A DNA stretch of 64,000 nt, taken from positions 1,254 to 65,253 of the forward strand of contig JBAZQN010000011.1 of assembly GCA_041645165.1 (NCBI GenBank), read 5' to 3'. Made by a program: the position numbers and the translations under genes. The first letter of the stretch is position 1. The number at the start of each line of letters is the position of its first letter. Source of the stretch: Patescibacteria group bacterium (GTDB taxonomy: Bacteria > Patescibacteriota > Patescibacteriia > 2-02-FULL-49-11). Below, piece by piece: positions 21,128-59,130 of this stretch. The notes beneath the pieces were generated by a model. It did no database searches and was not told the origin of the DNA. It worked only from the letters and a program-made list of their open reading frames with translations.

Positions 21128-21132
21128 ATTTT

Positions 21133-22493: not shown

Positions 22494-22504
22494 ATTTAAA
22501 AAAG

Positions 22505-22722
22505 TCTAAAATTTATTTCGCCTAACGTATCTGTGTATGAGAAGTCCCGCGCCATTGTAAAACGATTAATTCGTGGAACTTCTTACACAGTTATTTTATC
22601 AAATTAAATGTGGTATTAGCAATAGCGGGATTTGGGTGAAAAAAATATGGCGACCTTAAAATTTATATAAATGCCATATTTTTTGAACCTCATACACAGT
22701 GTTGTGCGATGTAAATTTTTTA
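22505..22722. repeat. attC-like palindrome D (aaaatttatttc-GCCTAAC-gtatctgtgtatgag … ctcatacacag-tGTTGTGC-gatgtaaatttt)
   Basis: About 215 bp with an unusually long central region. Its end motifs match B and C and the attI-like site. Confidence 0.45.
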
Positions 22723-22878
22723 TCCTCGTTTTTAATGGTATAAGCTTTATCTGTTCTAAAAGAAAATTTGATTTTTTGTCTTGGCTCAAAAAAGAGGGGT
22801 TAGGGGTGAATTTTTTGAGCCAAGACACATTAAAGAATTTTTATTTCAACTGCTTTTAGGATGTAACGATAACACAAC

Positions 22879-23430: not shown

Positions 23431-23450
23431 ATAAGAAAAATTACTATTTT

Positions 23451-24320: not shown

Positions 24321-24435
24321 ACTATAATTTGTAAAATTAAGTCTTTAATTTGTTCCCCTCTTAAATAAAATAAAAAATCAAATTTTCTTCGTGGTTAATG
24401 GATTAAAACTTGGAATTAATAGAAAAGATAAAAAA

Positions 24436-30403: not shown

Positions 30404-30823
30404 ATGCCTATGCCCGACTGTCTTTTTTGCAAAATCGGCACACACGAAATCCAATCGAAAGTGGTGCACGAGGATAGCGAGACGATTGCATTCCTCGACA
30501 TTCATCCCTTGTCTGCGGGGCACACCGTGCTTGTTTCGAAAACCCACACGCCTACGGTGACGACCTTACCCTCGCATGCGCTTTCTCCGCTCATCGTGGC
30601 GGTGCAGCGCGTCACCCATATTATAGAATCAGCCCTCAAACCTGACGGCTTTAATATCGGATGGAATCATGGTGAAGCAGGAGGGCAGACTATAGGGCAT
30701 CTGCATATCCACATAATCCCCCGGTGGCAGGGCGACGGCGGAGGGTCCATCCATACCATCGTGCACAATCCGCCCGCGGAAGATTTGGAGTCGATTTATA
30801 AAAAATTAAAATCAGTCACATGA
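30404..30823 (+). CDS. HIT-family (histidine triad) hydrolase
   Basis: Histidine triad HLHIHIIP and N-terminal CLFCKI. Confidence 0.85.
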   Translation: MPMPDCLFCKIGTHEIQSKVVHEDSETIAFLDIHPLSAGHTVLVSKTHTPTVTTLPSHALSPLIVAVQRVTHIIESALKPDGFNIGWNHGEAGGQTIGHLHIHIIPRWQGDGGGSIHTIVHNPPAEDLESIYKKLKSVT

Positions 30824-30921
30824 GGTATTAGGCATTATGTATCAGGTATTAGGGAGTTGAAGTGCATAATACGTAATACGAAATACGTGATACGAAACCT
30901 TTGTACTATTAATATTTTAAT

Positions 30922-32175: not shown

Positions 32176-32251
32176 TTGTTTTCGTATTAGTGAACGGCTT
32201 GATTAAGAAATGTCAATCCGTAATACGTGATACGTAATACTTAATACCCCA

Positions 32252-34130: not shown

Positions 34131-34154
34131 AATTATTGTGTGTAAAAATGCTCG

Positions 34155-34240
34155 TGATGGGACGATTTTATTCGGCGTCGCGATCTAGCAGCTTGATGCG
34201 CCTTTCCGCCTCAAAAATCGCCCATCCCTCGCTTCATAGG
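34155..34240 (+). repeat. repeat family S copy 3
   Basis: Outer stem gatggg…cccatc. The internal acgatttt/aaaatcgc change is compensated on both arms. Confidence 0.8.
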
Positions 34241-34245: not shown

Positions 34246-35289
34246 ATGCCTATTTTAGATAAGGGGATATTACAAAAATATAAGAAAGGGGATGAGTGGC
34301 GTTGGTTGTGGAAACTCCATCCCGGGCATTTGCGGTGGAATGGAGGAGGGAAGAATAGCGTGCTAAGGGATCGAAACGCGTATCCCTGGTGGCAGCGTGT
34401 TGCCCATTGGTTTATTCCTCATGAACGAAACGGCTTCAGGCCCCATGCGGTGCGGCACAACGCGTTAATCGGCTATTCGTTTATTCTCATTGCGGCAAAA
34501 GTGGGATTAACGCTCACGCTCTTCTTGAGCGTTCCCAATGAAGCGTATTTTTCTACACTAACCGCCCAGCGGGTGATAGATCTTACCAACCAGGCGCGGG
34601 TGGAAATCGGTATCGCACCCTTGACGGTGAATCCGCTTCTTGAACGGTCTGCTGGCTTGAAAGTGGAAGATATGGCGAAGATGGGTTATTTCACGCATAC
34701 GAATCCTAAAGGAGAAAGCCCGTGGGAGGATTTCAAGCGGGCAGGGTATGAATATACGTATGCCGGAGAAAACCTCGCAATGGATTTTCGGGAAGCGGAA
34801 GAAGTTGTACAGGCATGGATGGAGAGCCCGAAACACCGCGAAAATATACTTAATCCAAAATATCAAGAAATCGGCATTGCGGTGACTACGGGCACGGTGA
34901 AGGGGAGGACGGTGAGTTTGATTGTGCAGCATTTTGGCACGTCGTATCTTGCGGGAACAAAACGCGAATTTGCGCCTGCCGCGCTTGGCGCGGCCACGCA
35001 GAGCCCCCAGGGAGAGCCTGCGCTTGCCGCCGCAGCCACCCAAGTCACGCTTACCCAAGGCGCCACGCCATTTTCCCTGAATAAGCTCATGAACGTGGCA
35101 TTATGGACTTTCGCGGTGTTTGCGCTCGGGATGATCGTACAGCTCTTGCTCACCATTGTCATCCATATAAAAATACAGCACCGCGGGACGATTTATGCGT
35201 GCCTCGCGGTGATTGCGCTCGCGGTAGGGTTGCTCTATACGAATGTCCACTTCTTGGAGCGTCTGGGCAGCGTGCCGATTATATTTTAA
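34246..35289 (+). CDS. CAP/SCP/PR-1-domain protein with a C-terminal membrane anchor
   Basis: Motifs GYFTHTNPKGESPWED … GENLA … HRENILNPKYQEIGIAV match the CAP-domain signature. Confidence 0.75.
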   Translation: MPILDKGILQKYKKGDEWRWLWKLHPGHLRWNGGGKNSVLRDRNAYPWWQRVAHWFIPHERNGFRPHAVRHNALIGYSFILIAAKVGLTLTLFLSVPNEAYFSTLTAQRVIDLTNQARVEIGIAPLTVNPLLERSAGLKVEDMAKMGYFTHTNPKGESPWEDFKRAGYEYTYAGENLAMDFREAEEVVQAWMESPKHRENILNPKYQEIGIAVTTGTVKGRTVSLIVQHFGTSYLAGTKREFAPAALGAATQSPQGEPALAAAATQVTLTQGATPFSLNKLMNVALWTFAVFALGMIVQLLLTIVIHIKIQHRGTIYACLAVIALAVGLLYTNVHFLERLGSVPIIF

Positions 35290-35423
35290 TGGTATCAGCT
35301 TTTTAATACTATTGCGTAAAGTAGCGTATCATGTAGCGCGAAGTAGCTTCTATGCCCTATCAGTAGAAGCCACTTTTCGCCAGCACATGGGCCAGTGTGC
35401 GCCACTAACGTGAAGAGTTTAAT

Positions 35424-36821
35424 TTATCGTCCTGCGCCGGAGAGAACGGTTTTAATCGTCCGCAGGAGAATTGCCGTATCGAGGACAAACGAGCGGTTCT
35501 TGATGTAGTAAAGGTCATATTGCAATTTTTCCATGGTATCTTCCGGCGAAGCACTGTGGTACGTACCCGAGATTTGATCCCATCCCGTGAGCCCTGGTTT
35601 AACCACCAGGCGTTCTTTGTAAAATGGGATTTTATCGCTTAATGCTTCCACAAATTCCGGCCTTTCCGGCCGCGGACCCACGAAACTCATATCCCCCTTG
35701 AGCACATTGATAAGCTGGGGAAGCTCGTCAAGCCTTGTTTTCCGCAGGAAGCGACCCACTTTTGTAACGCGGGGATCGCCCTGGGTCGCCCATTGCGGCC
35801 CGTTTTTTTCCGCGTGTATATCCATGGAGCGGAATTTCATGGCAAGGAACACTTTGCCATTTTTACCAACGCGGTGCTGCATGAAGAATCCTGATCCGGG
35901 AGATTCAAGCTTTATGGCAGCATAGATGAAAGGGGCAAGCGGCGCGGCCACGATAAGCGAGAAAAGAGAGAGCACAATATCGGAAGTGCGTTTGAATATC
36001 TCATAGAGCGGTTTGTGCGCGCCAGTCGCATGTTTCATGAACCACAGTTCGCCAATGCTCTCGACAGGCACTTTTCCCGTAGCTGTTTCATAGAGGGTGG
36101 GCAGATCAGTGATTTGAGTTCTTAAATTCCGATGCATAAAGAGCGCCTGTAAAAGCGTTGGGCTCATGTGCTGATCCGTGGCAGCGACAATAAGTTCGAC
36201 GCGTTCGTTCATGATGAGGGGCGCGATCTCTTCGAGCGTAGCGGTTGTTTTTACGGGCATGCCCATTCGGCGCAGCCGTTCAGTCTCCTCAAGCGAACAT
36301 TCATCAGAATTAATTACCCAATATACCAGAAGGTAGCCGAGCTGGGGGTTATGCTGAAGCGTGCTGCTTAAAGCAAAAGCATCTTTGGAATATCCAAGGA
36401 TGAGGGTGCGGATAAGGAGCGCGGTCCCCAAAATATGGTTAAGCAAACGCCGCCAGAGTGTAATTAAAAGTGCGGTAAGTGCGACAAATAGTATGAGGTT
36501 CAAGCGCGGGGTAATGCCAGGACGCACGACATAGAAAAATATGGCCGCAAGCGCGGTAGCGCCAACCATTGCCTGGATAAGAGCGCTTGAGAAGATTTTC
36601 GAATTGCGCGCAATCGAAAGCTGATAAAGTCCAGTAATGGCAAAACTCACTAAATAAATTATAAAGACGAGAGAGAAAGGGAAGAAGTGCTGCTGCCACC
36701 GTTCGGCGCTGGGAATGCTTCCATAGCGGATAAGGAGCGTAAAAAAAAGGGCGGAATACAGGACGACGATATCACCTGCGAATAACGTTAGGGTGCGCCA
36801 GCGGTGGGTAGAATAAGTCAT
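35424..36821 (-). CDS. undecaprenyl-phosphate sugar phosphotransferase (WbaP/ExoY-type bacterial sugar transferase)
   Basis: Five N-terminal TM helices. C-terminal motifs PRPERPEFV… KPGLTGWDQISG. Confidence 0.85.
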   Translation of the reverse strand: MTYSTHRWRTLTLFAGDIVVLYSALFFTLLIRYGSIPSAERWQQHFFPFSLVFIIYLVSFAITGLYQLSIARNSKIFSSALIQAMVGATALAAIFFYVVRPGITPRLNLILFVALTALLITLWRRLLNHILGTALLIRTLILGYSKDAFALSSTLQHNPQLGYLLVYWVINSDECSLEETERLRRMGMPVKTTATLEEIAPLIMNERVELIVAATDQHMSPTLLQALFMHRNLRTQITDLPTLYETATGKVPVESIGELWFMKHATGAHKPLYEIFKRTSDIVLSLFSLIVAAPLAPFIYAAIKLESPGSGFFMQHRVGKNGKVFLAMKFRSMDIHAEKNGPQWATQGDPRVTKVGRFLRKTRLDELPQLINVLKGDMSFVGPRPERPEFVEALSDKIPFYKERLVVKPGLTGWDQISGTYHSASPEDTMEKLQYDLYYIKNRSFVLDTAILLRTIKTVLSGAGR

Positions 36822-36906: not shown

Positions 36907-37138
36907 TATGCCCCGCAATACAACATCCAAGAGGGAGGCAGAGACATTAGCGCAGAGAATGGATAATATAAGGGAATCTGCATGAGTGCGCTAATAGGTA
37001 TTTTTATGGCCTCCCTCACCGATCGCCAAACGTTTTCTCCCATCATAATTATGCATCACTACTCCAAGGTCGCATTCATTCTAGGTATTTATACCATGCC
37101 AGCCGCGTTTGGCGTTGGATGTTGATATACGGGGTATG
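36907..37138 (+). promoter_or_regulatory. conserved ~230-nt structured 5' leader L, copy 1 (upstream of the Wzy-like gene)
   Basis: Shares tatgccccgYaatacaacatccaagagggaggca … gcctccctcaYcgatcgcca … ggcgttggatgttgatatacggggt(ATG) with 50649-50876. The 5' end is complementary to the segment covering the start codon. Confidence 0.6.
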
Positions 37139-39421
37139 ACTCAAAAATTGCCACACGATAAGGCCGTGCTTCATCCTCTTGCGTGGGGGGTTCTCATACC
37201 GCTTGCGCTGTGTTTGGTGACGCCGCTGTTGGTGCATTCTTCATTTATTTTCCCCTTTATCTCGACGAAGACTTTTTGGTTCCGCAGCTGGGTGGAAGTG
37301 GCCGCCGCATGCTACGCGATCCTCGCATTTAAAGTACCCGGTTACCGTCCGCGCTTTACGCCGGTCATGAAAGCGATTGCCGGATATTTTACAGTTGCGG
37401 TGATCGCGAGTTTGTTTGGAGAAAATCTCTATCGCAGTTTTTGGGGGAACATCGAACGCGGCGAAGGGCTCCTGACACTGATGCATGTATTTGTGTACGG
37501 ATTCTTATGTGCGCAGACTTTAAGGACCAAGAAGCTCTGGGAATATTTTTTTGCGGGCAGCCTAATCGTTGCTATCCTTGTGTCGCTCTATGGCATCGGC
37601 CAGCGTATGGGCGTGAGTTGGGTATTGCATTCAGGCGACACCAGGCTATCGGCGACTATCGGCAATGCATCGTTCCTTGCCGGGTACCTCCTTATGCATA
37701 CCTTCATAGCGCTTTGGTTCGCGCTGACCCCCCGTCATATCGTGTGGCAGATCACCGCGGGGATCGCGTATGTGTTTTTGTGGTACGTGACATATAATAC
37801 CGGCACGCGCGGCGCACTGATTGCAGGAATTATCGTCACCTCTCTTATGGGCTGCGTACTTGCATTCCGCGCGCGAACACGTAAAAGAGCAATACGATTA
37901 GCGACTATTGCTGCCGTGATGGTTGTTATCGGCATCACTGCAAGTATTTTTGTAAAGCGCGATGCGCCCTGGGTGCAGCAGAGCCCGACTCTGAGACGCA
38001 TAGCTTCCATATCCTTTTCAGATATAACCACGCAGTCCCGGTTGCTCACCTGGGAATCTTCGCTGAAAGGCCTGCGCGACCGTCCGCTCTTGGGATACGG
38101 CTATGAGAATTATAATATCGCGTTCAACCGTTATTTCAATCCGCTTATTTATCGGGATGCCGGTTCACAGGTGTGGTTTGATAGGGCGCATAATGTCATT
38201 TTTGATATTGCGCTTACTTCTGGCATAGTCGGTCTCCTTGCTTACTTTTTAATGTTTGGCATGGCGCTTCGCGCGGCGTGGCAATGCGCGCGGCGTGAAG
38301 AACTCGAATCCTCCGTGACAGGCGTGTTATTTGCAAGCCTCCTTATCGCGCACCTTCTCCAGAATCTTTTTGTGTTTGACATTCTCGCTACCTATATCCC
38401 TCTCATGTTGGTATTCGGATTTTTAGATGCAGTGAGCAGCAGGATCCCGTACTCAACGCAAGGCGCGATCGTACCCTCTGGCATGCCGAAATCGGGAGCA
38501 GCTCCCGCAGTGGCAACGATTATCGTGTTAATATTTACATGGTACCATTTTAACTATTTGCCTGCGTCAGTGAATCGCGAGGGGCTGGATGCGATGCGTA
38601 TGAGGATGGAAGGAAGGGGCGCAGAAGCGACTGATAAGTTTAAGAAAGTGATCGGGAGAGACACGTATCAGGCAGGCGAGATTCGGTTAAAGCTTGCCGA
38701 ACACGCGCTCGATATAAGGGCAGGCACGGGTTCAGTGACTGATGAAATTGCGGCAAATACCTTTAACGATGCGATTGATGAAGTTTTGAAAAATATTGAA
38801 GTTTCTCCCAAGGATGCACAGCTTTATTTATACCTCATGAATTTATATTATGCGGGGGGCAAGTATCAGTCAGATCGATTAGGCTTAATAGAGCGCGTAG
38901 GCAAGGAAGCGCTTGCGCTTACTCCCACAAGGCCGCAAACGTATTACCTCCTCGGTCAAGGCGCAGCGGGGAGGGGAGAGTATGAAAAAGCGGCGGATTA
39001 TTTTAAAACTGCAGTTGATTTAAACCCTGCAGTGGTTGAATCGCACTGGAACCTGTCGGTGGCATACCGCCTTGCTAACCGGAAAGACGACGAGCGGAAG
39101 GAATATGAGATCCTCGAAGGCATGGGAATGGGCTATGCGCAGAGAGAAAACCTTGCCGACATTGATCTTATGCGCCTTACGCAAGGCTATGCATCCCTTA
39201 GCGAATATGCGCGCCTTGCAGGCGTATATGAAGTGTTGGCGAGCCGTTATCCCACCAATGCGGAATATATCGCGAAACTGGCTGCCGCATACAAATCAGC
39301 AGGGGATTACCCGCGCGCGCGCGCCATTGCGGCCAAAATGCTTGAGCTTAAACCCGACATGAAAGCTGACGTAGAATCATTTCTCGCGGAAATTGAACAG
39401 GCGGAAAAGGGCAGCCAATAG
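37136..39421 (+). CDS. O-antigen ligase/polymerase-like (Wzy_C) membrane protein with C-terminal TPR repeats
   Basis: Multi-TM. Loop motif RAHNVIFDIALTSGIVGL. C-terminal TPR-like repeats. The ORF track opens inside the leader at 37109. Confidence 0.7.
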   Translation: MTQKLPHDKAVLHPLAWGVLIPLALCLVTPLLVHSSFIFPFISTKTFWFRSWVEVAAACYAILAFKVPGYRPRFTPVMKAIAGYFTVAVIASLFGENLYRSFWGNIERGEGLLTLMHVFVYGFLCAQTLRTKKLWEYFFAGSLIVAILVSLYGIGQRMGVSWVLHSGDTRLSATIGNASFLAGYLLMHTFIALWFALTPRHIVWQITAGIAYVFLWYVTYNTGTRGALIAGIIVTSLMGCVLAFRARTRKRAIRLATIAAVMVVIGITASIFVKRDAPWVQQSPTLRRIASISFSDITTQSRLLTWESSLKGLRDRPLLGYGYENYNIAFNRYFNPLIYRDAGSQVWFDRAHNVIFDIALTSGIVGLLAYFLMFGMALRAAWQCARREELESSVTGVLFASLLIAHLLQNLFVFDILATYIPLMLVFGFLDAVSSRIPYSTQGAIVPSGMPKSGAAPAVATIIVLIFTWYHFNYLPASVNREGLDAMRMRMEGRGAEATDKFKKVIGRDTYQAGEIRLKLAEHALDIRAGTGSVTDEIAANTFNDAIDEVLKNIEVSPKDAQLYLYLMNLYYAGGKYQSDRLGLIERVGKEALALTPTRPQTYYLLGQGAAGRGEYEKAADYFKTAVDLNPAVVESHWNLSVAYRLANRKDDERKEYEILEGMGMGYAQRENLADIDLMRLTQGYASLSEYARLAGVYEVLASRYPTNAEYIAKLAAAYKSAGDYPRARAIAAKMLELKPDMKADVESFLAEIEQAEKGSQ

Positions 39422-42734: not shown

Positions 42735-42875
42735 AAAATATAAATCGAAGTTCTAAATCCGAAACCCTAAACCCTAAACACCCCATCGACTCGGCTCAGG
42801 GTGACAAAGCGGTTGTCATGGTGAGCCGAGTCGAACCATGTTTAGAGTTTAGAGCTTAGAATTTAGAGTTTATTC
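42735..42875. repeat. heptamer-periodic quasi-palindrome (ctaaatc/cgaaacc/ctaaacc… mirrored by gtttaga repeats) with central hairpin cgactcggctca…tgagccgagtcg
   Basis: Arms homologous to 55305-55445. Sits upstream of metK. Confidence 0.8.
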
Positions 42876-44652: not shown

Positions 44653-45597
44653 ATGGAAATAATTGTCACCGGCGGAGCGGGGTTTATCGGATCGCATGTT
44701 GTGGATGCGCTGATTGGGCGTGGATTTCAGGTAACGGTGATTGATAATCTTATTACTGGCAAGCGGGCAAACGTGCACAAAATAGCTAAGCTGATTAGGT
44801 TGGATGTCAGAAACCCTAAACTTAATAATTTATTTAAAACAATAAAACCTGTATACGTTTTTCATCTTGCAGCGCAAATGGACGTGAAAAAATCATTGAG
44901 AGAGCCGCTTTTTGACGCGAGTGTGAACATATTAGGATCGCTCAACGTGATTAAATCAGCTGCTGATGTTGGGGTGAAAAAATTTATCTTTACCTCAACT
45001 GGCGGCGCAGTCTACGGCGACACATCAATTATTCCCACACCCGAAACAGTACCCGAGGCGCCCATTTCACCATATGGGGTGGCAAAGCTCGCGGTAGATA
45101 AATACCTCCATCAATTTTGGCACGTTGCAGGCATGCCCTATGTGAGCTTGAGATTTGGCAACGTGTATGGACCGCGCCAGCGTGCTGACGGCGAGGCGGG
45201 CGTGGTGGCAATCTTTGCAGGAAGGCTCGTACGCGGATTGCCCTGCGCGATAAATGGGAGCGGTAAACAAACGCGCGATTTCGTATATGTGGGCGATGTA
45301 GTAGATGCGGCTATGAAGGCAATGTATAAACCTTTTGTGGGCACGGTCAACATTGCAACAGGGAAGGAATCATCGGTAAATACGGTATATATGTTGTTGG
45401 CGAAAAACATACAGACGCGTTTGAAGGCCACACATAATCCTGCGATTCAGGGGGAGCAAATGCGCAGCGTGCTAGATTGGAAAAAAGCGAAAAAAGTGCT
45501 AGGATGGAAGCCGAAGGTGAATTTAGAGGAAGGATTGAGGAGAACTATTGCATGGCATTGTCATAATGCAAAAATCAAAAATCAAAAATCAAAATGA
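44653..45597 (+). CDS. NAD-dependent epimerase/dehydratase (GalE-like)
   Basis: VTGGAGFIGSHV, YGVAK (YxxxK). 314 aa. Confidence 0.8.
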   Translation: MEIIVTGGAGFIGSHVVDALIGRGFQVTVIDNLITGKRANVHKIAKLIRLDVRNPKLNNLFKTIKPVYVFHLAAQMDVKKSLREPLFDASVNILGSLNVIKSAADVGVKKFIFTSTGGAVYGDTSIIPTPETVPEAPISPYGVAKLAVDKYLHQFWHVAGMPYVSLRFGNVYGPRQRADGEAGVVAIFAGRLVRGLPCAINGSGKQTRDFVYVGDVVDAAMKAMYKPFVGTVNIATGKESSVNTVYMLLAKNIQTRLKATHNPAIQGEQMRSVLDWKKAKKVLGWKPKVNLEEGLRRTIAWHCHNAKIKNQKSK

Positions 45598-45660
45598 TAG
45601 ATCAAAATTTATAAATTTTGTATTCTCATTTTGCATTTTGAGATTTACATTTTGATTTAT
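45565..45660. repeat. heptamer-periodic quasi-palindrome ((aaaaatc)n … attttgatttt)
   Basis: Overlaps the epimerase C-terminus (…KIKNQKSK). Confidence 0.75.
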
Positions 45661-46337: not shown

Positions 46338-46450
46338 ATAAAGCGTCGAGGTATAAGAAACAAGATACAAGAAACAAACATCAAGCTACAAGATACAATA
46401 ACCAATATTGGTGTTTGTGAGTTGGTTATTGGTGATTATTTGATGATTGT
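46338..46450. repeat. heptamer-periodic quasi-palindrome (aagaaac/aagatac … mirrored gtttcttgg)
   Basis: A related tract lies at 8985-9020. Confidence 0.7.
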
Positions 46451-46453: not shown

Positions 46454-46858
46454 TTGGTAATTGATTATTTACATATGGTTTTCCAGATCATCGCGTGCGC
46501 GTTAATCATATTGATTGTGGGGCGGATCGCATGGCAATTCCGCCGAGGCACGATCAGCGGGAAAGAATTTTTCTTTTGGTCGTTTTTTTGGGTGCTTGCC
46601 GCGGCGGCCATACTCGTGCCCAACGCCTTAACCATGATCGCGAATATATTAGGCATCGGGCGGGGGACTGACCTCGCATTTTACGGCTCATTCGTCATCG
46701 TCGCCTATGTGCTCTTCAGAATTGTGGTACGGATGGATAAGATGGAAAGGGATATCACAAAAGTAGTGAGACATTTGGCGCTTGATGATACGCATCAGGT
46801 ATCACGTATTAAGTATCAGGGGACTGACCGCGATACGCTTGAGAATCGTGATACGTAA
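46454..46858 (+). CDS. small 4-TM membrane protein (DUF2304-like, GT2-associated); the C-terminal ~25 aa are encoded by a taatac heptamer repeat
   Basis: Hydrophobic profile. Nucleotides 46775-46875 are the cgtgatacgtaatacctaatacc repeat. Confidence 0.4.
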   Translation: MVIDYLHMVFQIIACALIILIVGRIAWQFRRGTISGKEFFFWSFFWVLAAAAILVPNALTMIANILGIGRGTDLAFYGSFVIVAYVLFRIVVRMDKMERDITKVVRHLALDDTHQVSRIKYQGTDRDTLENRDT

Positions 46859-46889
46859 TACCTAATACCTAATACTTACTATTATCACC

Positions 46890-48044
46890 ATGCCCCGCGT
46901 CGCCGTGATCATAGTCACCTATAATAGCGCCCGGTTCCTCCCGGAACTTTTCGTAAGCCTTAAGGCCATGCAGCATCCCGCCGGCGGGGTGCAGTTTATT
47001 TTTGTGGACAATGCTTCTGCCGATCACAGTCCAGAATTGGTACGCGAGGCAATGCCGGATGCGGCATTGGTTCGTGAAAAAGAAAATAGAGGATTTTCTG
47101 CAGGTGTGAATGCAGGCTTGAGGCACCCGTTGGCGCAAGGCGTGGAATTTATCGCGCTTCTCAATCCTGACACGGTGGTGCATCCGGATTGGCTCACGGC
47201 CCTCGTGAACGCGTTGGAAGGACAGCGTAAGGCTGTCTCTGCTCAATCTCTTATTCTTTACGCGCAGGATCGCGAGAAGGTAAATTCAGCGGGAAATAGT
47301 ATCCACTTTTTAGGGTTTGGTTTTAGTCAAGCTAACGGGCAGTCCCGATCTGTCATTCTGAACGAAGTCCCGATACCATCGGGACGGAATGAGGAATCGC
47401 CCACGAATGTGGGCTCGCATACGCGAGAGATCCTTCGTCCCGATGCGCTTGGGACTCAGGATGACGTTAAACTCAGCACACATTTCATCACCTACGCGAG
47501 CGGGGCTGCAGTGCTGTACCGACACAATGCGTTGAAGGAAATTGGTTTATTCGACGAAAACCTTTTTATGTACCATGATGATCTTGACGTGGGGTGGAAA
47601 TTTTTGTTACGCGGATACCAGAATATTTTAGTACCCTCCTCGATAGTTTATCATCATTACGAATTTTCACGCAGCATCCGGAAATATTACTGGATAGAGC
47701 GCAATAGGCTCTTGCTCCTGCTTACGCATTATAAATTCAGCACCCTGTTATTAATTTTACCCGCATTAATTATTCTTGAATTCGGGTTGATGTTTTTCGC
47801 GCTCTACCGCGGTTTTTTTGGCGCGCGACTGCGTGCGTACGTATGGATATTTGTTCATGTGCCTTTAATTATGAAAAAACATAAATACGTGCAGAATATA
47901 AGAACACAGCCTGATAAGGCCGTACTTGGATCATTTACCGGTGTCATTACTGACCAAGAGATAAGCAATCCTCTTGTGGAATATGTTATGAATCCGGTGT
48001 TTGCATTATATCTTGCCTTTCTCCGTTATGTTATACGATGGTAG
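46890..48044 (+). CDS. GT2 glycosyltransferase carrying an in-frame RPE-like palindromic insertion
   Basis: VAVIIVTYNSARFL … FVDNASAD … DxD region. Nucleotides 47345-47465 (gtcattctgaacgaagtcc…gggactcaggatgac) encode …SRSVILNEVPIPSGRNEESPTNVGSHTREILRPDALGTQDD…. Confidence 0.8.
   Translation: MPRVAVIIVTYNSARFLPELFVSLKAMQHPAGGVQFIFVDNASADHSPELVREAMPDAALVREKENRGFSAGVNAGLRHPLAQGVEFIALLNPDTVVHPDWLTALVNALEGQRKAVSAQSLILYAQDREKVNSAGNSIHFLGFGFSQANGQSRSVILNEVPIPSGRNEESPTNVGSHTREILRPDALGTQDDVKLSTHFITYASGAAVLYRHNALKEIGLFDENLFMYHDDLDVGWKFLLRGYQNILVPSSIVYHHYEFSRSIRKYYWIERNRLLLLLTHYKFSTLLLILPALIILEFGLMFFALYRGFFGARLRAYVWIFVHVPLIMKKHKYVQNIRTQPDKAVLGSFTGVITDQEISNPLVEYVMNPVFALYLAFLRYVIRW
47345..47465 (+). repeat. 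RPE-like palindromic element, copy 1 (gtcattctgaacg…cccacgaatgtgggctcgcatacgcgagagatccttc…ggtcaggatgac)
   Basis: Terminal arms are inverted-complementary. Copies lie at 48701-48794 and, reversed, at 50514-50573. Confidence 0.85.
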
Positions 48045-48078: not shown

Positions 48079-49494
48079 ATGCCATACCGAATCGCGCATA
48101 TCACCCCCGTGTACCCGCCTTATGCAGGCGGTATTGGGGTTGTGGCGAAAAATATGGCGGGAGGGTTGGCAGGAAGAAGATGGCAAGTGGAAACGTTTAC
48201 GCCCACGTTGGATAACTCCACCCAACCTCCTCTTAAGTTAAGAGGAGGGGAAGGAGGAGTTATGGATAATAAAATAACGTATCTCAAACCATGGTTGCAT
48301 GTGGGCAATGCGGCGCTCGTGCCGCAATTAAGGAAATTAGAAGGATACGATATCATTCATCTGCATTATCCTTTTTTCGGCGGGGCTGAATTTGTTCTTC
48401 TGGGTATAATTTTTCAACGATTTAATTCCGCGTTTTTCAGCGATAAGGCCACGCGTGACGTTCCGCGTAAGTCAGCGTTCATTTTACAATACCATCATGA
48501 CGCAGACGCTAAAGGTTTGAAGGGGATGATGTTTAAACTTTATGACAGGATTGTGCTCCCGCGTTTGATCACGCGCGCCGACAGGGTGATCGTATCAGCG
48601 ATGGATTATGCGCAACATTCACGCATTGCGAAATACATAAGCGATAAGTTTGTCGAAATACCGTTTGGGGTTGATGCGAAACGATTTGAACCGTTAGGTA
48701 GTCATTCTGAACGTAGTGAAGAATCTCCCGTGCATACGGGCACACCGCTGGCATTCGCCAGAGATCCTTCCCCCGACTCGCGGGGTCAGGATGACAAATC
48801 CGTTATTGTTCTCTTCGTCGGTTCCCTCGACCGCGCGCATTGGTTTAAAGGGTTAGAGGTATTACTTCACGCGTTCGCCATACTGAAACAAGAAAATGAA
48901 CAAAATCGTTTAAAATCTACTCATTTAAACCCTACCCTAAATACCACGAGCCAACTTCGCCATAGTAGCCAAAGGCTACGTCGGCTGAATCGTGGTAATC
49001 CTGCCTGCGCAGGCAGGAGGGAGGGATTGAATTTGAAATGTTTGGTTATAGGCGAAGGTAATCTTAAAGAGAAATATAAAAAAATGGCACAAGATTTAGG
49101 GATTCAAGACCAAGTGCAGTTTTTTGGCAACGTGTCTCAAACGCAATTGCCTGATTATTACCGCAACGCGGACCTTTTTGTGTTTCCTTCGGTATCGCGC
49201 GCGGAAGCATTCGGATTGGTGGCGCTTGAAGCAATGGCGTCAGGTTTGCCCGTCATCGTAAGCGATCTGCCGGGAGTGCGGACGCTGGTGGAAGAGGGGA
49301 TAAACGGATTTAAGGTGCCTGTGAATGATCCACGTGCGTTGGCGCGACGCATTCAGGATCTGATTGAAGATAAGTCACTACGCGGCAGTATGGGACAAAA
49401 AAGCAGAGAAAAGGTTTTAGAGGGTTATACATGGGATAAGGCTATTGACAAGATAGAGAGAGTGTACTTAGATATGTTGGTAAATAAACCATGA
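48079..49494 (+). CDS. GT4 glycosyltransferase with three in-frame repeat-derived insertions
   Basis: N-terminus MPYRIAHITPVYPPYAGGIG. C-terminus EAFGLVALEAMASGLPVIVSD (Glycos_transf_1). Insertions: 48216-48273 (HP2 hairpin plus ggaggagttATG), 48701-48794 (RPE-like), about 48900-49030 (palindromes gccatagtagcc…ggctacg and cctgcctgcgcaggcagg). Confidence 0.75.
   Translation: MPYRIAHITPVYPPYAGGIGVVAKNMAGGLAGRRWQVETFTPTLDNSTQPPLKLRGGEGGVMDNKITYLKPWLHVGNAALVPQLRKLEGYDIIHLHYPFFGGAEFVLLGIIFQRFNSAFFSDKATRDVPRKSAFILQYHHDADAKGLKGMMFKLYDRIVLPRLITRADRVIVSAMDYAQHSRIAKYISDKFVEIPFGVDAKRFEPLGSHSERSEESPVHTGTPLAFARDPSPDSRGQDDKSVIVLFVGSLDRAHWFKGLEVLLHAFAILKQENEQNRLKSTHLNPTLNTTSQLRHSSQRLRRLNRGNPACAGRREGLNLKCLVIGEGNLKEKYKKMAQDLGIQDQVQFFGNVSQTQLPDYYRNADLFVFPSVSRAEAFGLVALEAMASGLPVIVSDLPGVRTLVEEGINGFKVPVNDPRALARRIQDLIEDKSLRGSMGQKSREKVLEGYTWDKAIDKIERVYLDMLVNKP
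48216..48273 (+). repeat. HP2-SD-ATG element (cctcctcttaagttaagaggagg ggaaggaggagttATG) inserted in-frame inside the GT4 gene
   Basis: Same module that precedes the DUF559 and hydrogenase-large-subunit starts. It creates an internal SD plus ATG at 48271. Confidence 0.8.
48701..48794 (+). repeat. RPE-like palindromic element, copy 2 (in-frame in GT4)
   Basis: gtcattctgaacgtagtgaagaatctccc…agatccttcccccgactcgcggggtcaggatgac encodes HSERSEESPVHTGTPLAFARDPSPDSRGQDD. Confidence 0.85.
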
Positions 49495-49532
49495 AATAGC
49501 ATTTTCACAAAATTTGAGAGGAGGTGAGGAAG

Positions 49533-49673
49533 TTGAAAAAGTTCCCACTTTTTCTAATATTTCTGTTGTTGCTAGGTGGTTGCAAGGAGGAGGAGAAGAA
49601 AGAAAAGCAGCAAGATCAGCAACAACAGCAAGAGAAGGAGCAGGAATATACGGGGAAAGAATTAGATGTGTAG
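49533..49673 (+). CDS. small lipoprotein (46 aa, TTG start)
   Basis: SD gaggaggtgagg 7 nt upstream. Signal peptide LKKFPLFLIFLLLLGGC (lipobox) followed by a Glu/Lys/Gln tail. Confidence 0.3.
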   Translation: MKKFPLFLIFLLLLGGCKEEEKKEKQQDQQQQQEKEQEYTGKELDV

Positions 49674-49886
49674 CTCCTTCTTTTAAAAATGCGGCAGGGG
49701 TAATTGACTTGCCGCGGCTTTCTTAGATGAGAATGCATTTATCCTTTAAGAAAGCTTAGGAACTTTGAAGTAGTGAGAGCTTCATGATGCAATTCAGGGG
49801 CTCTTTTATTTATGCACATTGTTGGATTATGAAGAGTGTTATAAGGTGAAGTAATAAACCAATGTAGTTGATATCGAACCTTTACA

Positions 49887-50402
49887 ATGGAGGTCATTAT
49901 GTCCCCGAGAGAGAAGATTGTTGTGAGGGGGATCGTAACATTAGTTTTATTAGTTGGGGGTGGTTGGTGTTTGGTATGTGATTACCTCATGCATAAGTAT
50001 GAGGAGTCACAAATTGGTACAACGTCGACATGGGTGGGGTCGACTGGTACCGTTAATTCACTAGATCTTCCTGAATTAGATAATTTCCAAGCACAGGAGG
50101 ATCTCGAGATGTTCATCCAGCGTCATGAGCTGGCGGACATCCTCCACCGACGGGAATGCTACAGGGTGGCGTTCCCTCATGGAGAGCGACCGGATAGTAC
50201 AGTCGAGTGGCGTGGGCACAGGTCCGATCGTGGCCTTTTCCTTCTTGGGCCACCAACGGGGAGGACCGAACTCTATGAGGAGGGCGGTGAGTGTTATTAT
50301 ATTTTCACCGTTACCTCATTTGCTTCACAACGTTACTTCCTCCCGGGAATAACGATATTCAACGGGTCGCTCTGGCCCGGAGATTACCTTTTCGTTTTTT
50401 AA
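49887..50402 (+). CDS. hypothetical protein with an N-terminal TM helix
   Basis: 171-aa ORF with no motifs. Confidence 0.4.
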   Translation: MEVIMSPREKIVVRGIVTLVLLVGGGWCLVCDYLMHKYEESQIGTTSTWVGSTGTVNSLDLPELDNFQAQEDLEMFIQRHELADILHRRECYRVAFPHGERPDSTVEWRGHRSDRGLFLLGPPTGRTELYEEGGECYYIFTVTSFASQRYFLPGITIFNGSLWPGDYLFVF

Positions 50403-50513
50403 ATCCCGCCGATTTTTTAAAGGAGGAAAACCATTTTCCTCCTTCTGCCCTAGGAGATAAGTTAATTTGTCTTTTAAGGCGGGATTTAGAGAGATGGAGA
50501 AGGTTATGGTATA

Positions 50514-50573
50514 CCGTCCTCGCGCATACGAGCCCACATTCGTGGGAGATTCTTCACTACGTTCAGAATGACG
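50514..50573 (-). repeat. RPE-like element, copy 3 (partial, intergenic)
   Basis: Reverse complement atcgtcattctgaacgtagtgaagaatctcccacgaatgtgggctcgtatgcgcgag. Confidence 0.8.
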
Positions 50574-50605
50574 ATAGGAAGGGTATAAGGGTGTTTTTAT
50601 AGAAG

Positions 50606-50632
50606 AGAGTGTAGTAAGACACTCTTTTTTGA
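50606..50632 (+). terminator. rho-independent terminator (agagtgtagtaagacactct tttttt)
   Basis: 7-bp perfect stem followed by a T6 run, downstream of the 49887..50402 ORF. Confidence 0.6.
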
Positions 50633-50648
50633 TATACAATGATAATGT

Positions 50649-50876
50649 TATGCCCCGTAATACAACATCCAAGAGGGAGGCATAAATTTGAAAAATAGAG
50701 AATGGATTTACTAGGGGAGTCTCGGCGAGTGCATTAAGTGGTTCTTTCCTCGCCTCCCTCATCGATCGCCATACTAATGCCAAGTTTTTTGCGTAACATT
50801 TCATCTTAATCTCATTTATCCATCATAATCATTTTACGCCGTTTGTGTGGCGTTGGATGTTGATATACGGGGTATG
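50649..50876 (+). promoter_or_regulatory. conserved structured 5' leader L, copy 2 (upstream of the GT4 gene)
   Basis: See copy 1 at 36907-37138. It ends …ggcgttggatgttgatatacggggtATG. Confidence 0.6.
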
Positions 50877-52193
50877 AAAGTATTACTTATTAATCATCTT
50901 TATCCCGAAGGCGGGGGCGCAGAAGCGGCGGCGAGAGGATTGGTGCAATTCCTTAAAGTACAAGGGCATGAGGTCGCGGCGCTTACCTTAGGTGATGATA
51001 CAGCAAAGGGTGGAATGAGCGGACGTGATGAAGGTGGCGTTCAAATATATTCTTATAAAACTTTAAGCCGCCGTTTTTCAGAGAAACTGATCGTTTGCTT
51101 ATTCTACGATCGCCCGCCTGCCGCCGCCTTTCATGAGGCTACTATATGTAATGATTTATCTAAAACAAAGCGTGTTAATAGAAGAACTAATAATAGGCTA
51201 TGGCGGGCAGGTAGTATATGCAAACGAGTATTTTTCAGAGCAGGGGCATTTTTGTGCGACTGGATTAATTTGAACGGCCCCTTAAAGGCTTTGCGATTAA
51301 TACAGAAATTAAAACCAGATGTGGTGCATACGCACAATCTGCGCGGGATGGGGATGCTCCTGCCTCTTTTTATCCGATTTGGCAAAGGTAATGCGCGGTG
51401 GATCCATACGCTCCATGATATCCAATTAGTTTATCCCAGCGGCGTGGTGAGGAATTCGAAGTCTGCGCAGATATATGAAATTATCAGAAAGATATATGAG
51501 CAACAGCAGAGGTTGGTTTGGGGTTCGCCGAATGTGGTGGCGTCGCCATCTGATTTTTTAAAAAAGTTTTACGCGGAAAGAGGATTTTTTAGGAAATCGA
51601 AATTTGAGGTAATTCCTAATGTGATAATGGGTGCGGCGCAAGGAGATGAAGAGATGGGGGAGGGGAAGAATTCTATTTCGTTCATTGGCGCGTTGGAGGA
51701 GAGTAAAGGAATACAGATTCTCCTTGAGGCTGCGCAAAGGGTGGGACAGGAATTTCAGCAACGCGCGTTTACCTTAGATATCGTTGGCGACGGGTCATTG
51801 AGGAACAAATTGGCAGCACAATATGCGCGATTCCCGTGGATTCGGTTTCGCGGTGCGTTAAAAGACAAATCATTAAAGGATATTTTTGCACGCGCTTTGG
51901 TCACCGTTATTCCCTCACTGACGCTGGAAAATGCGCCTATGGCAATCCTTGAGAGTTTTCATTTTGGCGTACCGGTTATCGCGAGCCGCATCGGCGGTAT
52001 TCCCGAATATGTGAAAGAAGGGGAGACGGGTTGGCTGTTTAACCTTGGGTCTGTTGATGAGTTAGCTGCATTGTTAAGAAAAATTATTAATGAAGGAGTT
52101 TCCGAAGAGATTTCCCGAAATTGCCAGCGCGTGTCGGTTGATTTGGGCGTACAGGCATATGCCGGCCATGCTGCGCTCTATAATTCGTCATAA
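50874..52193 (+). CDS. GT4 glycosyltransferase
   Basis: MKVLLINHLYPEGGGAE … E-x7-E region … FGVPVIASRIGGIPEYV. The ORF track begins inside the leader at 50847. Confidence 0.8.
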   Translation: MKVLLINHLYPEGGGAEAAARGLVQFLKVQGHEVAALTLGDDTAKGGMSGRDEGGVQIYSYKTLSRRFSEKLIVCLFYDRPPAAAFHEATICNDLSKTKRVNRRTNNRLWRAGSICKRVFFRAGAFLCDWINLNGPLKALRLIQKLKPDVVHTHNLRGMGMLLPLFIRFGKGNARWIHTLHDIQLVYPSGVVRNSKSAQIYEIIRKIYEQQQRLVWGSPNVVASPSDFLKKFYAERGFFRKSKFEVIPNVIMGAAQGDEEMGEGKNSISFIGALEESKGIQILLEAAQRVGQEFQQRAFTLDIVGDGSLRNKLAAQYARFPWIRFRGALKDKSLKDIFARALVTVIPSLTLENAPMAILESFHFGVPVIASRIGGIPEYVKEGETGWLFNLGSVDELAALLRKIINEGVSEEISRNCQRVSVDLGVQAYAGHAALYNSS

Positions 52194-52208: not shown

Positions 52209-52502
52209 GTATCTCATACGTACGCGCTCACTGTCCATCAACACCCCCACCACACCTCCCCCTTTATATCATCAAGATATGGCGAAGCCATAGGGGGAGG
52301 ACAAGGCGTGTGGTCTCCCCCTTAGGCGCCGTAAAAAAATAACATATCCCGCCATCTACGCCGTACGTCAACAAAATAAGGACAAACCTATGGGACAAGT
52401 GAAATGTTATTTTTTTAAGCGCCCTTATCAAGGGGGAGATCAAGAGGGGGGTTTAAACCGCGAGGATGGCGATGCCCCCAGTGAGCGCGTACATCTCATA
52501 CC
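52209..52502. repeat. MITE-A copy 2 (TIRs ggtatctcatacgtacgcgctcactg / cagtgagcgcgtacatctcatacc) with nested 25-bp and 100-bp elements
   Basis: Its interior aligns with copy 1 except for the inserted catcaagatatggcgaagccata (also at 1466) and the 100-bp repeat (also at 7186). Confidence 0.75.
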
Positions 52503-52504: not shown

Positions 52505-52533
52505 TTGACAAGGGGTATAATGCTCAATATACT
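52505..52533 (+). promoter_or_regulatory. sigma-70-type promoter TTGACA-17 bp-TATACT for hrcA
   Basis: Consensus -35, 17-bp spacer and a near-consensus -10 immediately upstream of the CIRCE operator. Confidence 0.6.
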
Positions 52534-52537: not shown

Positions 52538-52564
52538 TTAGCACTCTAACCATGCGAGTGCTAA
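52538..52564 (+). promoter_or_regulatory. CIRCE operator (TTAGCACTC-N9-GAGTGCTAA), HrcA binding site
   Basis: Perfect match to the 9-N9-9 CIRCE consensus, about 50 nt upstream of hrcA. Confidence 0.9.
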
Positions 52565-53298: not shown

Positions 53299-53323
53299 TA
53301 TTTTGTATAGTGCATTGCTATTC

Positions 53324-53497
53324 AGATTCCGATTTTCAACGTCATTCCCGCCCCGTATCGCGGTACGGGGCAAGCTCCGGCGGGAATCCAGACGCCGTCC
53401 TCGACCGAGATCGGGGAAAATCAAAAGAAAACACCGATTTTTTGTTTGTTTTTTGTCTGGATTCCAGATCAGGTCTGGAATGACATTATCGGAATTA
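53324..53497 (-). repeat. MITE-B copy 2, between hrcA and grpE
   Basis: Reverse complement of 17868-18038 at about 90% identity. Confidence 0.85.
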
Positions 53498-53524
53498 GGT
53501 TAACAATTTAGTATAATAAAAATT

Positions 53525-54997: not shown

Positions 54998-55324
54998 GTG
55001 ATCAGGCGTATGACACCAAAAGAAAACAATAAAAATGAAGCATTGATGCTTTTACGGGAATGCCCTTCATGCCGTTCGCGGTATACCCACACATCGGTAC
55101 AGGTGCTTTCTGCCAATGAGAAAGGGTCGCTGGTATCGTTTACCTGCGGTGAGTGCCGACTTGATGTCTTGGTAGCGGTATCGCCGATGCCTTTCGGGCT
55201 GGTGGGCACTGGGATGCCGACTGACTGCGCGACCGACGAAGTGATGAGATTTATGGATTCAAACGAAATTACCGAAGATGATGTGATAGAGGCGCATACG
55301 TTGCTTGAAAATCCGAAATCCTAA
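54998..55324 (+). CDS. hypothetical zinc-ribbon protein
   Basis: CPSCRS…CGECRL double CxxC. 108 aa. Confidence 0.4.
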   Translation: MIRRMTPKENNKNEALMLLRECPSCRSRYTHTSVQVLSANEKGSLVSFTCGECRLDVLVAVSPMPFGLVGTGMPTDCATDEVMRFMDSNEITEDDVIEAHTLLENPKS

Positions 55325-55445
55325 ATCCGAAATCCTAAACAAGCTCAAAACACAAAATTCGAAATATTCCTATCCCTTAATATTTCGATGATTTGAATCT
55401 CGAATTTTGGATTTGTTTAGGGTTTAGAGTTTAGAATTTAGTATT
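55305..55445. repeat. heptamer-periodic quasi-palindrome upstream of dnaK (ctaaatc/cgaaatc/ctaaaca … gtttagg/gtttaga/gtttaga)
   Basis: Homologous to 42735-42875. Confidence 0.8.
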
Positions 55446-57364: not shown

Positions 57365-57450
57365 GACGTATCCCGTATTATGTATTACGTTATGTCGTGA
57401 TATCTATATACGTAATACCTAATACCTAATACCTAATACTTCAACCACTA
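57365..57450. repeat. heptamer repeat tract (cgtaatacctaatacctaatacctaatac)
   Basis: Same word family as 30835-30905, 32180-32250 and 46775-46875. Confidence 0.8.
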
Positions 57451-57755: not shown

Positions 57756-57766
57756 CTTCGTTCGTC

Positions 57767-57848
57767 CTGGACAATTTTCTCGGCGGCGCGATCTAGCAGC
57801 TTGATGCGCCAGACCGCCTCGTAAATTGCCAGGACTCACTTTTAGGGA
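57767..57848 (+). repeat. repeat family S copy 4
   Basis: Outer stem cctgg…ccagg. Confidence 0.8.
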
Positions 57849-58035
57849 GGATATATAGATCTCACACTATGACATGGCACTGCGCTTAAGGCAGACCGCG
57901 ATTCTTGTTGCGGAACTCGTCCCGCTATGCGGGACTCAAACAGTCCTCACGGCGAACACTGTCTCCCCGCCAAAATAAGGCGGGGAGAGTAGTTGGTGGA
58001 GGTACGATTCACAAGATTTTTAAGTGAAGTATTAT

Positions 58036-59130
58036 ATGGCAAAAGATTACTATAGTATTTTGGGTGTTTCTAAGAATGCCAGTCAAGAGGAGATCAAGAA
58101 GGCATTCCGCAAGCTCGCGCACCAGCATCATCCAGACAAGGGCGGCGGCAATGAAGAAAAGTTTAAAGAAATAAATGAGGCATATCAGGTGCTCTCTGAC
58201 ACACAGAAGAGAGAGCAGTATGACCAGTTTGGCACGACGTTTGAAGGAGGGACGGGGGGCGGTGCACAATGGCAGGATTTTGCGCAAGGAGGGCCTTTTG
58301 GAGGGTTCCGCACGAACGTGGATTTTAATGATATCGGCGACCTGTTCGGCGATATGTTCGGTTTCGGGTCTGGGGGGCGGGGAAAGCGGGGACGCAAGCG
58401 CAAGGAAGGAAGGGACTTGGAAATCGATACCACCATAGAATTCATAGATGCGGTGCGCGGAGTGACGAAGCGCATCACGCTTGAGAAATTGCAGGAATGC
58501 GAGTCGTGCCGCGGATCAGGGAGCGAGGGAAAGGGCGGAGTGAAAACCTGCAGCACATGCGACGGCGCAGGCGTGGTGGAGCAAGCCCAGCGTACCTTTT
58601 TTGGCACGTTCACTTCGCAATCAGTGTGCCCCGCGTGCCATGGCGAAGGAAGCGTCATAGAAAAGCCATGCGGCAAGTGCCGCGGTGAAGGCCGTGTGCT
58701 CAAAGAACATGCATTTGAAATAACCATTCCGCCGGGCGTGGCAGAAGGCACCACCCTGCGCATGGAAGGGAAAGGAGAGGCAGGCGTGCGGGGTGCCTCG
58801 GCGGGGAACCTTTTTATCACGGTGCATATAAAACCTGACAGCCGCTTCCGGCGGGAACATGACGATATCCACAGCGACGCGAGCATCACTTTGCCGCAGG
58901 CAGCGCTTGGCGATTCGATGAGAGTGCCTACCGTGGATGGGCTGGTGGAAGTGAAAATCCCTTCAGGCACGCAGTCAGCCACGGTGATACGCTTGAAAGG
59001 CAAAGGCATACCGCACCTTGAATCCGCGGGAAGGGGAGACCATTTATTGCATGTCACGGTTGCGGTACCCACGCGTTTAAACAGGAAACAGAAAGAGCTT
59101 TATGAGGCGCTTGCGAGGGAAGAGGAGTAA
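58036..59130 (+). CDS. dnaJ: molecular chaperone DnaJ
   Basis: J domain with HPD (HQHHPDKGG), G/F-rich linker, four CxxCxGxG zinc-finger repeats. Confidence 0.95.

Follow-up and report, generated by a model that had tools for sequence, protein, structure and literature searches.

Nested small non-coding elements, including a 24-nucleotide hairpin module, upstream of hrcA in a Patescibacteria bacterium

The DNA analysed here (hereafter the window) covers 64 kb of a 66.4-kb metagenome contig in the European Nucleotide Archive (ENA; ERZ27249422 k141_110275). Upstream of hrcA, which encodes a heat-shock regulator, the window carries a composite element in which a miniature inverted-repeat transposable element (MITE), designated MITE-A, holds a 100-bp element (E100) in the loop of one of its hairpins and a 24-nt module (24-mer) in the loop of the other. 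We regard this structure as the outcome of the stacked activity of three non-coding elements, with a rough probability of 0.6 for the account as a whole. That MITE-A and E100 moved recently is shown almost beyond doubt. The 24-mer may represent an ultra-small non-autonomous mobile module resembling the small dispersed repeats (SDRs) of cyanobacteria, a reading to which we assign, from sequence comparisons, slightly less than an even chance. The exact coordinates of repeats, ends and flanks were checked by script on the window sequence, and those of the main features are collected in Table 1.

The element upstream of hrcA, copy 2 of MITE-A, is composed of a 147-bp backbone, a net insert of 23 nt (the 24-mer counted from its leading T) and 103 bp contributed by E100 together with its duplication. 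Its ends form a perfect 14-bp inverted repeat, GTACGCGCTCACTG (52220-52233) and CAGTGAGCGCGTAC (52479-52492), which is bordered on each side by a 9-bp target-site duplication, ATCTCATAC. An earlier sequence-only reading of this DNA had recognised the terminal inverted repeats, although the strings it gave took in the 9-bp duplication as well. The same reading had aligned copy 2 with copy 1 apart from two inserts, and this alignment holds, with copy 1 corrected to 8113-8257: once both inserts are removed, the backbone of copy 2 aligns end to end with copy 1 at ~68% identity. Directly against the ends of copy 1 lie AGATGCATA (8104-8112) and AGATGCATT (8258-8266), which match at eight of nine positions. 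A 12-bp direct repeat, GCATTTGAATGA, had been described as flanking copy 1. It is indeed present (8081-8092 and 8262-8273) but is not the target duplication, as its left member lies 20 nt from the end of copy 1 and its right member overlaps the true duplication; this placement marks it as part of the target region, not as an insertion footprint. A third, decayed copy, which the sequence-only reading did not list, was found on the minus strand.

MITE-A copies were also found elsewhere. Two loci from a Joint Genome Institute (JGI) metagenome assembly (L002 and L003) keep the terminal ends seen in copies 1 and 2, and degenerate 9-mers can be read by eye in their flanks. Three MITE-A-like units (L006a, b and c) occur in a metagenome-assembled genome (MAG) of Candidatus Uhrbacteria. 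As single-stranded DNA, MITE-A is predicted to fold into a long terminal stem with two internal C-rich/G-rich hairpins (copy 1: -30.8 kcal/mol, z = -4.45). The element is non-coding; no open reading frame (ORF) inside it bears a Pfam domain, and a concatenated six-frame translation of five copies scored nothing against a protein database. No Rfam family was found at the locus, no similarity to plasmid or phage records was detected, and the gapped MITE-A pattern had 0 matches in viral contigs.

Copy 2 is a real, lineage-specific insertion that took place after divergence from the relatives available for comparison, because the site is empty, with one 9-mer only, in four relatives' contigs. These contigs (L011-L014, from three ENA assemblies and one Logan run) encode HrcA proteins 97% identical to that of the window and share the same gene neighbourhood; nevertheless, the spacer between the glycosyltransferase gene and hrcA measures 136 nt in them versus 418 nt in the window. 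Where the window has ATCTCATAC, the element and ATCTCATAC again, the relatives have the single 9-mer ATCTTATAC, reading GGTATCTTATACCTCTTGACA. In a global pairwise alignment with L011, the gap falls exactly at 52211-52492, and its 282 bp correspond to the 273-bp element plus one 9-bp duplication. The search for empty sites in related strains, which the sequence-only reading had proposed, thus came out in favour of insertion. MITE-A has, in sum, inverted ends, a duplication of fixed length (9/9 at copy 2, 8/9 at copy 1) and insertion polymorphism, as is usual for MITEs.

The insertion lies immediately beside the regulatory region of hrcA. A near-consensus sigma-70-type promoter (TTGACA-17-TATACT, 11/12 matching) is located at 52505-52533, and is followed by a CIRCE operator, TTAGCACTC-N9-GAGTGCTAA, at 52538-52564, ahead of the 228-aa hrcA. 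The right duplication of copy 2 ends 3 nt upstream of the -35 box, leaving the promoter intact. The operon downstream has the order hrcA-grpE-hsp20-dnaK-DUF3467-dnaJ.

E100 is certainly an insertion into copy 2 and not a segment lost from the other copies, because (i) it has inverted ends of its own, (ii) it is flanked by 3-bp duplications (TTA/TTA in copy 2 and TAA/TAA at the solo copy), (iii) an identical copy stands alone elsewhere in the window, and (iv) its removal together with one TTA restores a normal loop, TTATCAA. The inverted ends span ~21 bp, GGCGCCGTAAAAAAATAACAT and ATGTTATTTTTTTAAGCGCCC; when GGCGCCGTAAAAAAATAACAT is compared with the reverse complement GGGCGCTTAAAAAAATAACAT, 16 of 21 positions match without gaps, and ~18/21 with one gap. 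All other MITE-A copies have an uninterrupted loop of 4-7 nt at this position. The solo occurrence at 7186-7285 had been reported by the sequence-only reading, which had also named deletion from longer ancestral elements as the case that would overturn its account; for E100, this case is excluded by the evidence above. As the two copies are identical at 100 of 100 positions, the insertion must have been very recent. With its inverted ends, its 3-bp duplication (TTA or TAA) and its two identical copies, E100 also has the make-up of a MITE. A Logan contig (L005) breaks inside the solo copy, as expected for a repeat, and the end of E100 had 0 matches in viral contigs.

The 24-mer in copy 2 recurs as an identical copy at 1467-1490, inside a second element, MITE-B, that shows no similarity to MITE-A besides this block. 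The sequence-only reading had described the block as a 25-mer. The shared block is real at both sites, but it is 24 nt long and not 25 (the string given earlier had 23 letters). Two exact copies occur in the window versus none in 100 shuffles of it, and a search that allowed up to 7 mismatches found no degenerate relatives there. The module consists of a single-stranded head of 8-9 nt (TCATCAAGA) followed by the hairpin TATGGC-GAA-GCCATA, with a predicted fold of a 6-bp stem and a GAA loop (z = -3.1). Written as TATG-GCGAAGC-CATA, the hairpin contains, on the top strand only, the exact GCGAAGC mini-hairpin motif extended by four more base pairs. DNA of the sequence d(GCGAAGC) has a melting temperature of 76.5 C, is undenatured in 7 M urea and resists nucleases (PMC13037366). 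Another extended GCGAAGC mini-hairpin, CGCGGCGAAGCCGCG, again with a stem-GAA-stem layout, is found as a single copy at 6170-6200, ~45 nt after a stop codon.

The 24-mer is patchily and precisely distributed over the members of both MITE families. Its core 20-mer had two matches in JGI metagenomes, both within MITE-A copies (L002 and L003), and 0 matches in 185,579 GTDB species genomes and in viral contigs. In L002, L003 and copy 2, the module occupies the same place on the 3' side of the hairpin-1 loop, against the GGGGGAGG stem; copies 1 and 3 and the three L006 units lack it precisely, so that three MITE-A copies have it and five do not. Of the MITE-B elements, one carries it and two lack it, with exact boundaries. 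The claim that the same mini-element sits in a different repeat around 1466-1490 was therefore correct: when 1379-1528 is aligned with 35280-35420 on the opposite strand and with the copy in L003, these two other MITE-B copies lack exactly these 24 nt. The MITE-B copy that carries the module is itself an insertion, of 160 bp (the 150-bp element plus a 10-bp duplication), compared with a relative whose penicillin-binding protein (PBP) is 91% identical (L016). Since L016 lacks the element altogether, no orthologous site with MITE-B minus the 24-mer was available. As a separate feature of this family, the MITE-B of L003 (2270-2420) lacks a 22-nt segment that is present in both window copies (1395-1420 and 35380-35405); this segment has TGGC at both of its borders and may have been deleted by slippage or may represent a further small indel module.

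Insertion of the 24-mer is strongly favoured over deletion by these comparisons, as the same 24 nt appear in two MITE families that are otherwise unrelated. If the inserts were ancestral, the shorter copies would be deletion derivatives of longer elements. When MITE-A backbones are placed in a neighbour-joining tree, the non-carriers L006a and L006c fall among the carriers and leave these paraphyletic, and a single gain followed by one precise loss explains the pattern as parsimoniously as two gains do; in addition, hairpins are known hot spots of deletion. Nevertheless, the block must still have entered at least one of the two families, which are unrelated outside it, and it is missing from each of the MITE-A copies that diverge most (copy 1, copy 3 and L006b). 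We thus regard deletion from longer ancestral elements as improbable.

The presence of the 24-mer does not follow the relatedness of MITE-A backbones. The backbone of copy 2 is 80-82% identical to two of the non-carriers of L006 (39-40/43 in the spacer) versus 69-71% to the other carriers (26-30/43 in the spacer). Because copy 2 is closest to non-carriers, either at least two precise events of gain or loss within MITE-A or recombination between copies would be needed; overall, the module seems to have been cleanly gained or lost at least three times. The sequence-only reading treated the 24-mer in copy 2 as a separate insertion at 52269, a view that is probably wrong. L002 and L003 both have the module at exactly this place in the loop, and it most likely arrived with copy 2 from the donor MITE-A. 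The claim of recent activity of several independent small elements therefore stands for MITE-A and E100; for the supposed 25-bp element, activity can be suggested from four copies in two contexts.

The patchy, precise presence and absence of the same block across two unrelated hosts is what suggests mobility of the 24-mer, and SDRs are the closest likeness that we can offer. In two papers that cite the original work (PMC4390886, PMC3116915), the SDRs of Nostoc are described as stem-loop units of 21-27 nt that are precisely inserted in heptamer repeats, mini-transposons, HIP1 sites and each other. The 24-mer falls in this length class, is predicted to form a stem-loop, has no coding capacity, and is present or absent as an exact block within other repeats, mini-transposons among them, in nested arrangements; its host DNA is also rich in heptamer tandem repeats, the context in which SDRs were described. 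Eight SDR families (SDR1-SDR8) were reportedly recognised in Nostoc punctiforme and its relatives by Elhai et al. 2008 (Genome Res 18:1484), where SDRs are also said to be confined to one cyanobacterial subgroup. The differences are that the host is a member of the Patescibacteria and not a cyanobacterium, that HIP1 is absent from the window, and that the comparison with SDRs is one of description only. In summary, a precise insert and a stem-loop were found for the 24-mer; many sequence contexts, high copy number and a Nostoc-type host were not.

Several points weigh against the mobile reading of the 24-mer. The module is known from only four copies in two sequence contexts across the window, the species genomes and the JGI metagenomes, versus hundreds of copies for SDRs, with at most 66 kb of its own genome searched. 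The four copies share no target motif and no clear target duplication; a TA duplication was considered and rejected, since it fits MITE-A (TA|...|TA) but not MITE-B (TG|...|TA). The MITE-B junction is untidy: with the 24 nt taken out, it would read TGCA at a place that is GATA in the other copies. Among the sites compared, no orthologous pair of filled and empty sites was found for the 24-mer itself. Copy 2 looks mosaic, its left arm being nearest to L002 and its right part nearest to L006, and the patchy pattern within MITE-A could be due to recombination between copies. Nor does the identity of the four copies reveal their age. We had considered that the module is younger than its hosts, as the carriers are 66-77% identical elsewhere, but this idea was abandoned because the surrounding hairpin-1 block is itself nearly invariant among carriers. 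Finally, the window encodes no transposase of any kind.

Much of this would also be expected if the 24-mer were not mobile by itself. It could have been copied by rare non-transpositional events, such as template switching at stalled forks or patch repair, and then have travelled as a passenger of MITE-A, with its patchiness arising from recombination or from slippage deletion at the hairpin. The fixed position of three of the four copies in MITE-A, the mosaic look of copy 2, the TGCA/GATA mismatch in MITE-B, the lack of further copies or degenerate relics in the ~64 kb and the related loci, and the lack of matches in species genomes all agree with such a passenger. On the other hand, boundaries identical at 24/24 nt in two unrelated hosts that share no flank are hard to obtain by untargeted copying, and the conserved stems beside the loop, at only 8-9 bp, are short for homologous exchange. 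In our judgement, a passive passenger is a rather unlikely explanation, though one to be taken seriously.

An assembly artefact, in which chimeric joins through repeats created the nested structure, deserves mention because the window comes from a single contig of MEGAHIT style, because Logan contigs from the sample are broken within repeats, and because a 60-aa ORF over the E100/MITE-A junction is on record on this contig only. These Logan contigs (L005, L008 and L010, sample SRR8449827) are 100% identical to the window and show no polymorphism against it, and L008, an independent assembly, reproduces the 24-mer copy at 1467-1490. The label k141 in the contig name suggests k = 141; if so, k-mers span both flanks of E100 and of the 24-mer, as both are shorter than this. 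A MITE-A bearing the 24-mer is also present in the JGI assembly, and the exact duplications at every junction are unlike chimeric joins. An artefact is thus very unlikely.

MITE-A, MITE-B and E100 are new sequence families of an ordinary kind, in a poorly studied phylum. Like other bacterial MITEs, they are non-coding, 100-150 bp long, present in several copies and bounded by terminal inverted repeats; their target duplications measure 9 bp (MITE-A), 10 bp (MITE-B) and 3 bp (E100), and empty sites were found for MITE-A and MITE-B. They differ in that neither a parent insertion sequence nor a transposase was found within the window. Our literature search found no paper on MITEs in Patescibacteria, and the nesting of one MITE in another is ordinary. 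The 9-bp duplication of MITE-A fits several families of DDE transposases. A 3-bp TWA duplication is typical of some groups of the IS5 family, and that of E100 (TAA/TTA) suggests, by analogy, an IS5-type enzyme. The inverted ends of E100 start with GG; no IS5-type transposase or full-length element was seen, so the likeness to this family is one of target duplication.

The mini-hairpin and the REP/REPIN systems offer further comparisons for the 24-mer. REP (repetitive extragenic palindromic) and REPIN elements are mobilised by RAYT (REP-associated) tyrosine transposases (Bertels and Rainey 2011, PMC3116915; Di Nocera et al. 2013, PMC3733652). The 24-mer resembles them as a short (20-40 nt), extragenic, hairpin-forming repeat, and by analogy a single-strand, hairpin-recognising mechanism would be the most natural one for moving something as small as this. 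It was nevertheless rejected as a REP or REPIN, since it has no GTAG/CGTC head on either strand and no inverted doublets, and the window has no Y1/RAYT gene; as far as is visible, its copy number is also very low. The d(GCGAAGC) mini-hairpin of Hirao and colleagues (PMC13037366) is matched exactly and extended by four base pairs in the 24-mer. That hairpin belongs to physical chemistry and to replication origins, so that any link to mobility would be ours. The locus as a whole was built up in steps, the first two of which are shown by the sequence comparisons. MITE-A inserted 3 bp upstream of the hrcA -35 box and duplicated the 9-bp target, and E100 entered the AT-rich loop of hairpin 2, duplicating TTA. 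Both presumably depended on transposases acting in trans from genes elsewhere in the genome. The 24-mer was probably already present in the hairpin-1 loop of the donor MITE-A. As to how it reached that loop, it may have been copied as a single strand, the unit being defined by the extremely stable GCGAAGC hairpin, and may have landed in an exposed loop or AT-rich DNA with no clear target duplication. Because the mini-hairpin motif exists on the top strand only, it is attractive to speculate on a single-strand intermediate whose extent is set by the hairpin. We know of no mobile element that includes a GCGAAGC mini-hairpin. The fuller proposal is that the 24-mer is autonomous in form and mobilised in trans, the first SDR-like ultra-small unit outside cyanobacteria, in a genome of ~1 Mb from the Candidate Phyla Radiation (CPR), and that it spreads by hairpin-guided single-strand copying and insertion with neither terminal inverted repeats nor target duplication. 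This version is speculative, and we doubt it more than we believe it.

The host is, judging from its genes, an uncultivated ultra-small bacterium of the Patescibacteria (CPR), probably of Uhrbacteria/ABY1 type. The closest homologues of HrcA and of the PBP carry the names Patescibacteria group, Candidatus Uhrbacteria, Magasanikbacteria, Komeilibacteria or Kerfeldbacteria, and the Uhrbacteria MAG mentioned above, with a 49% G+C label, is the sole species genome to contain the gapped MITE-A pattern. The gene order hrcA-grpE-hsp20-dnaK-dnaJ, the short 228-aa HrcA and the lack of HIP1 (zero sites of the octamer GCGATCGC within the window) are all consistent with a CPR host. A cyanobacterial origin, at which the heptamer repeats hinted, was rejected in view of the missing HIP1, the hrcA-grpE-dnaK order and the Patescibacteria homologues. 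The heptamer tandem repeats occupy many intergenic regions of the window, often as inverted pairs (ATACCTA, AATACGT, AAGATAC, CTAAACC/GTTTAGA, AAATCCG and others), and resemble the short tandemly repeated repetitive (STRR) sequences of heterocystous cyanobacteria, even though the host is a CPR bacterium.

The genomes of CPR bacteria are usually described as small and streamlined; here, the intergenic regions are packed with MITEs, heptamer repeats and nested insertions. Close relatives lack at least two of these insertions; the genome is thus undergoing active remodelling, which extends to the immediate neighbourhood of a heat-shock regulator's promoter. If the 24-mer is mobile, it could rank among the smallest known mobile units of DNA and would extend a little-studied class of such units beyond cyanobacteria. 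The GCGAAGC mini-hairpin would then provide a structural handle on how they move, a question that has stood since 2008. Without such mobility, the locus is a textbook case of one MITE nested in another.

Table 1. Coordinates of MITE-A, MITE-B, E100, the 24-nt module and example heptamer repeats (window positions unless a locus is named)
Feature	Position	Strand	Remarks
MITE-A copy 2	52220-52492	+	273-bp composite element
Target-site duplication of MITE-A copy 2, left	52211-52219	+	9 bp, ATCTCATAC
Target-site duplication of MITE-A copy 2, right	52493-52501	+	9 bp, ATCTCATAC; exact repeat of left
MITE-A copy 1	8113-8257	+	145 bp, no nested inserts
MITE-A copy 3	~4836-4966	-	Decayed: inverted ends weak, no clear duplication; adjoins tRNA-Glu gene
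24-nt module	52269-52292	+	TCATCAAGATATGGCGAAGCCATA; in loop of MITE-A hairpin 1
24-nt module, second window copy	1467-1490	+	Inside MITE-B; identical to 52269-52292
E100 in MITE-A copy 2	52325-52424	+	In AT-rich loop of MITE-A hairpin 2
E100 left TTA duplication	52322-52324	+	
E100 right TTA duplication	52425-52427	+	
E100 solo copy	7186-7285	+	TAA flanks at 7183-7185 and 7286-7288
MITE-B with 24-mer	1379-1528	+	150 bp; flanks ATAAATTAAG (1369-1378) / ATAAAATAAG (1529-1538)
MITE-B without 24-mer	35300-35433	-	
MITE-B without 24-mer	L003:2318-2392		96% identical to 35300-35433 copy
Heptamer tandem repeats, examples	30823-30897, 32215-32247, 42753-42872, 45569-45608, 46355-46398, 46851-46875, 55309-55441, 57408-57439		

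Other features were noticed around hrcA. A 210-nt repeat, 88% identical between 53306-53515 and 17850-18055 on opposite strands, fills the hrcA-grpE spacer, which is 226 nt long in the window versus 66 nt in L011. It holds a member of a 44-nt hairpin family, GGATCCCGCATCAAGTGCGGGATGACA, with others at 13406, 25355 and 33546. Upstream, a 1.4-kb segment (49478-50872) with two ORFs of 171 and 159 aa, neither with a Pfam match, separates two glycosyltransferase genes that overlap directly in L011-L014; pieces of the segment are repeated at 36907-37139, 47384-47465 and 48701-48796. At 51111-51209, a glycosyltransferase gene has an in-frame extra segment of 99 nt (33 codons) compared with L011. A second contig of 50-200 kb with an identical HrcA is on record and may come from a variant strain with a different state of the MITE site. 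For the PBP, PALP and integrase, the identical protein likewise has one further similar place each, probably on this second contig; a single contig on record carries the identical glycosyltransferase of 448 aa, and the same holds for the 60-aa ORF across the E100/MITE-A junction.

Repeats and presumptive insertions occur in the rest of the window as well. Between murF and the gene for the small subunit of a NiFe-hydrogenase, a segment of ~4 kb (4822-9041) contains MITE-A copy 3, tRNA-Glu, a 257-aa ORF, a Band_7 protein, hexulose-phosphate synthase, E100 and MITE-A copy 1. An 82%-identical relative (L017) lacks this segment, its hydrogenase genes coming directly after murF. An 83-nt repeat family has four copies just downstream of genes (3348-3430, 15721-15803, 34152-34234 and 57760-57842), one of which adjoins insertions relative to L011 at 57858-58040. 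A low-G+C island at 18000-24400 (33-38% versus ~48% elsewhere) carries Fic, methyltransferase, DUF5676 and weakly matching radical-SAM genes, and may be an integrated element because it adjoins a gene for a tyrosine recombinase (Phage_integrase, 24495-25346). In the region 10513-11161, a DUF559 endonuclease gene (10708-11079) is bracketed by 143-bp repeats that are 99% identical, each of which combines a ribosome-binding site and two C/T-G/A hairpins with the last 60 nt of the DUF559 gene; the 3' end of this gene also occurs as a stray copy upstream (10567-10629). In the Uhrbacteria MAG, tandem MITE-A-like units without inverted ends likewise flank a DUF559 gene (L006, 515-1264), and DUF559 genes and hairpin modules may together form a mobile cassette.

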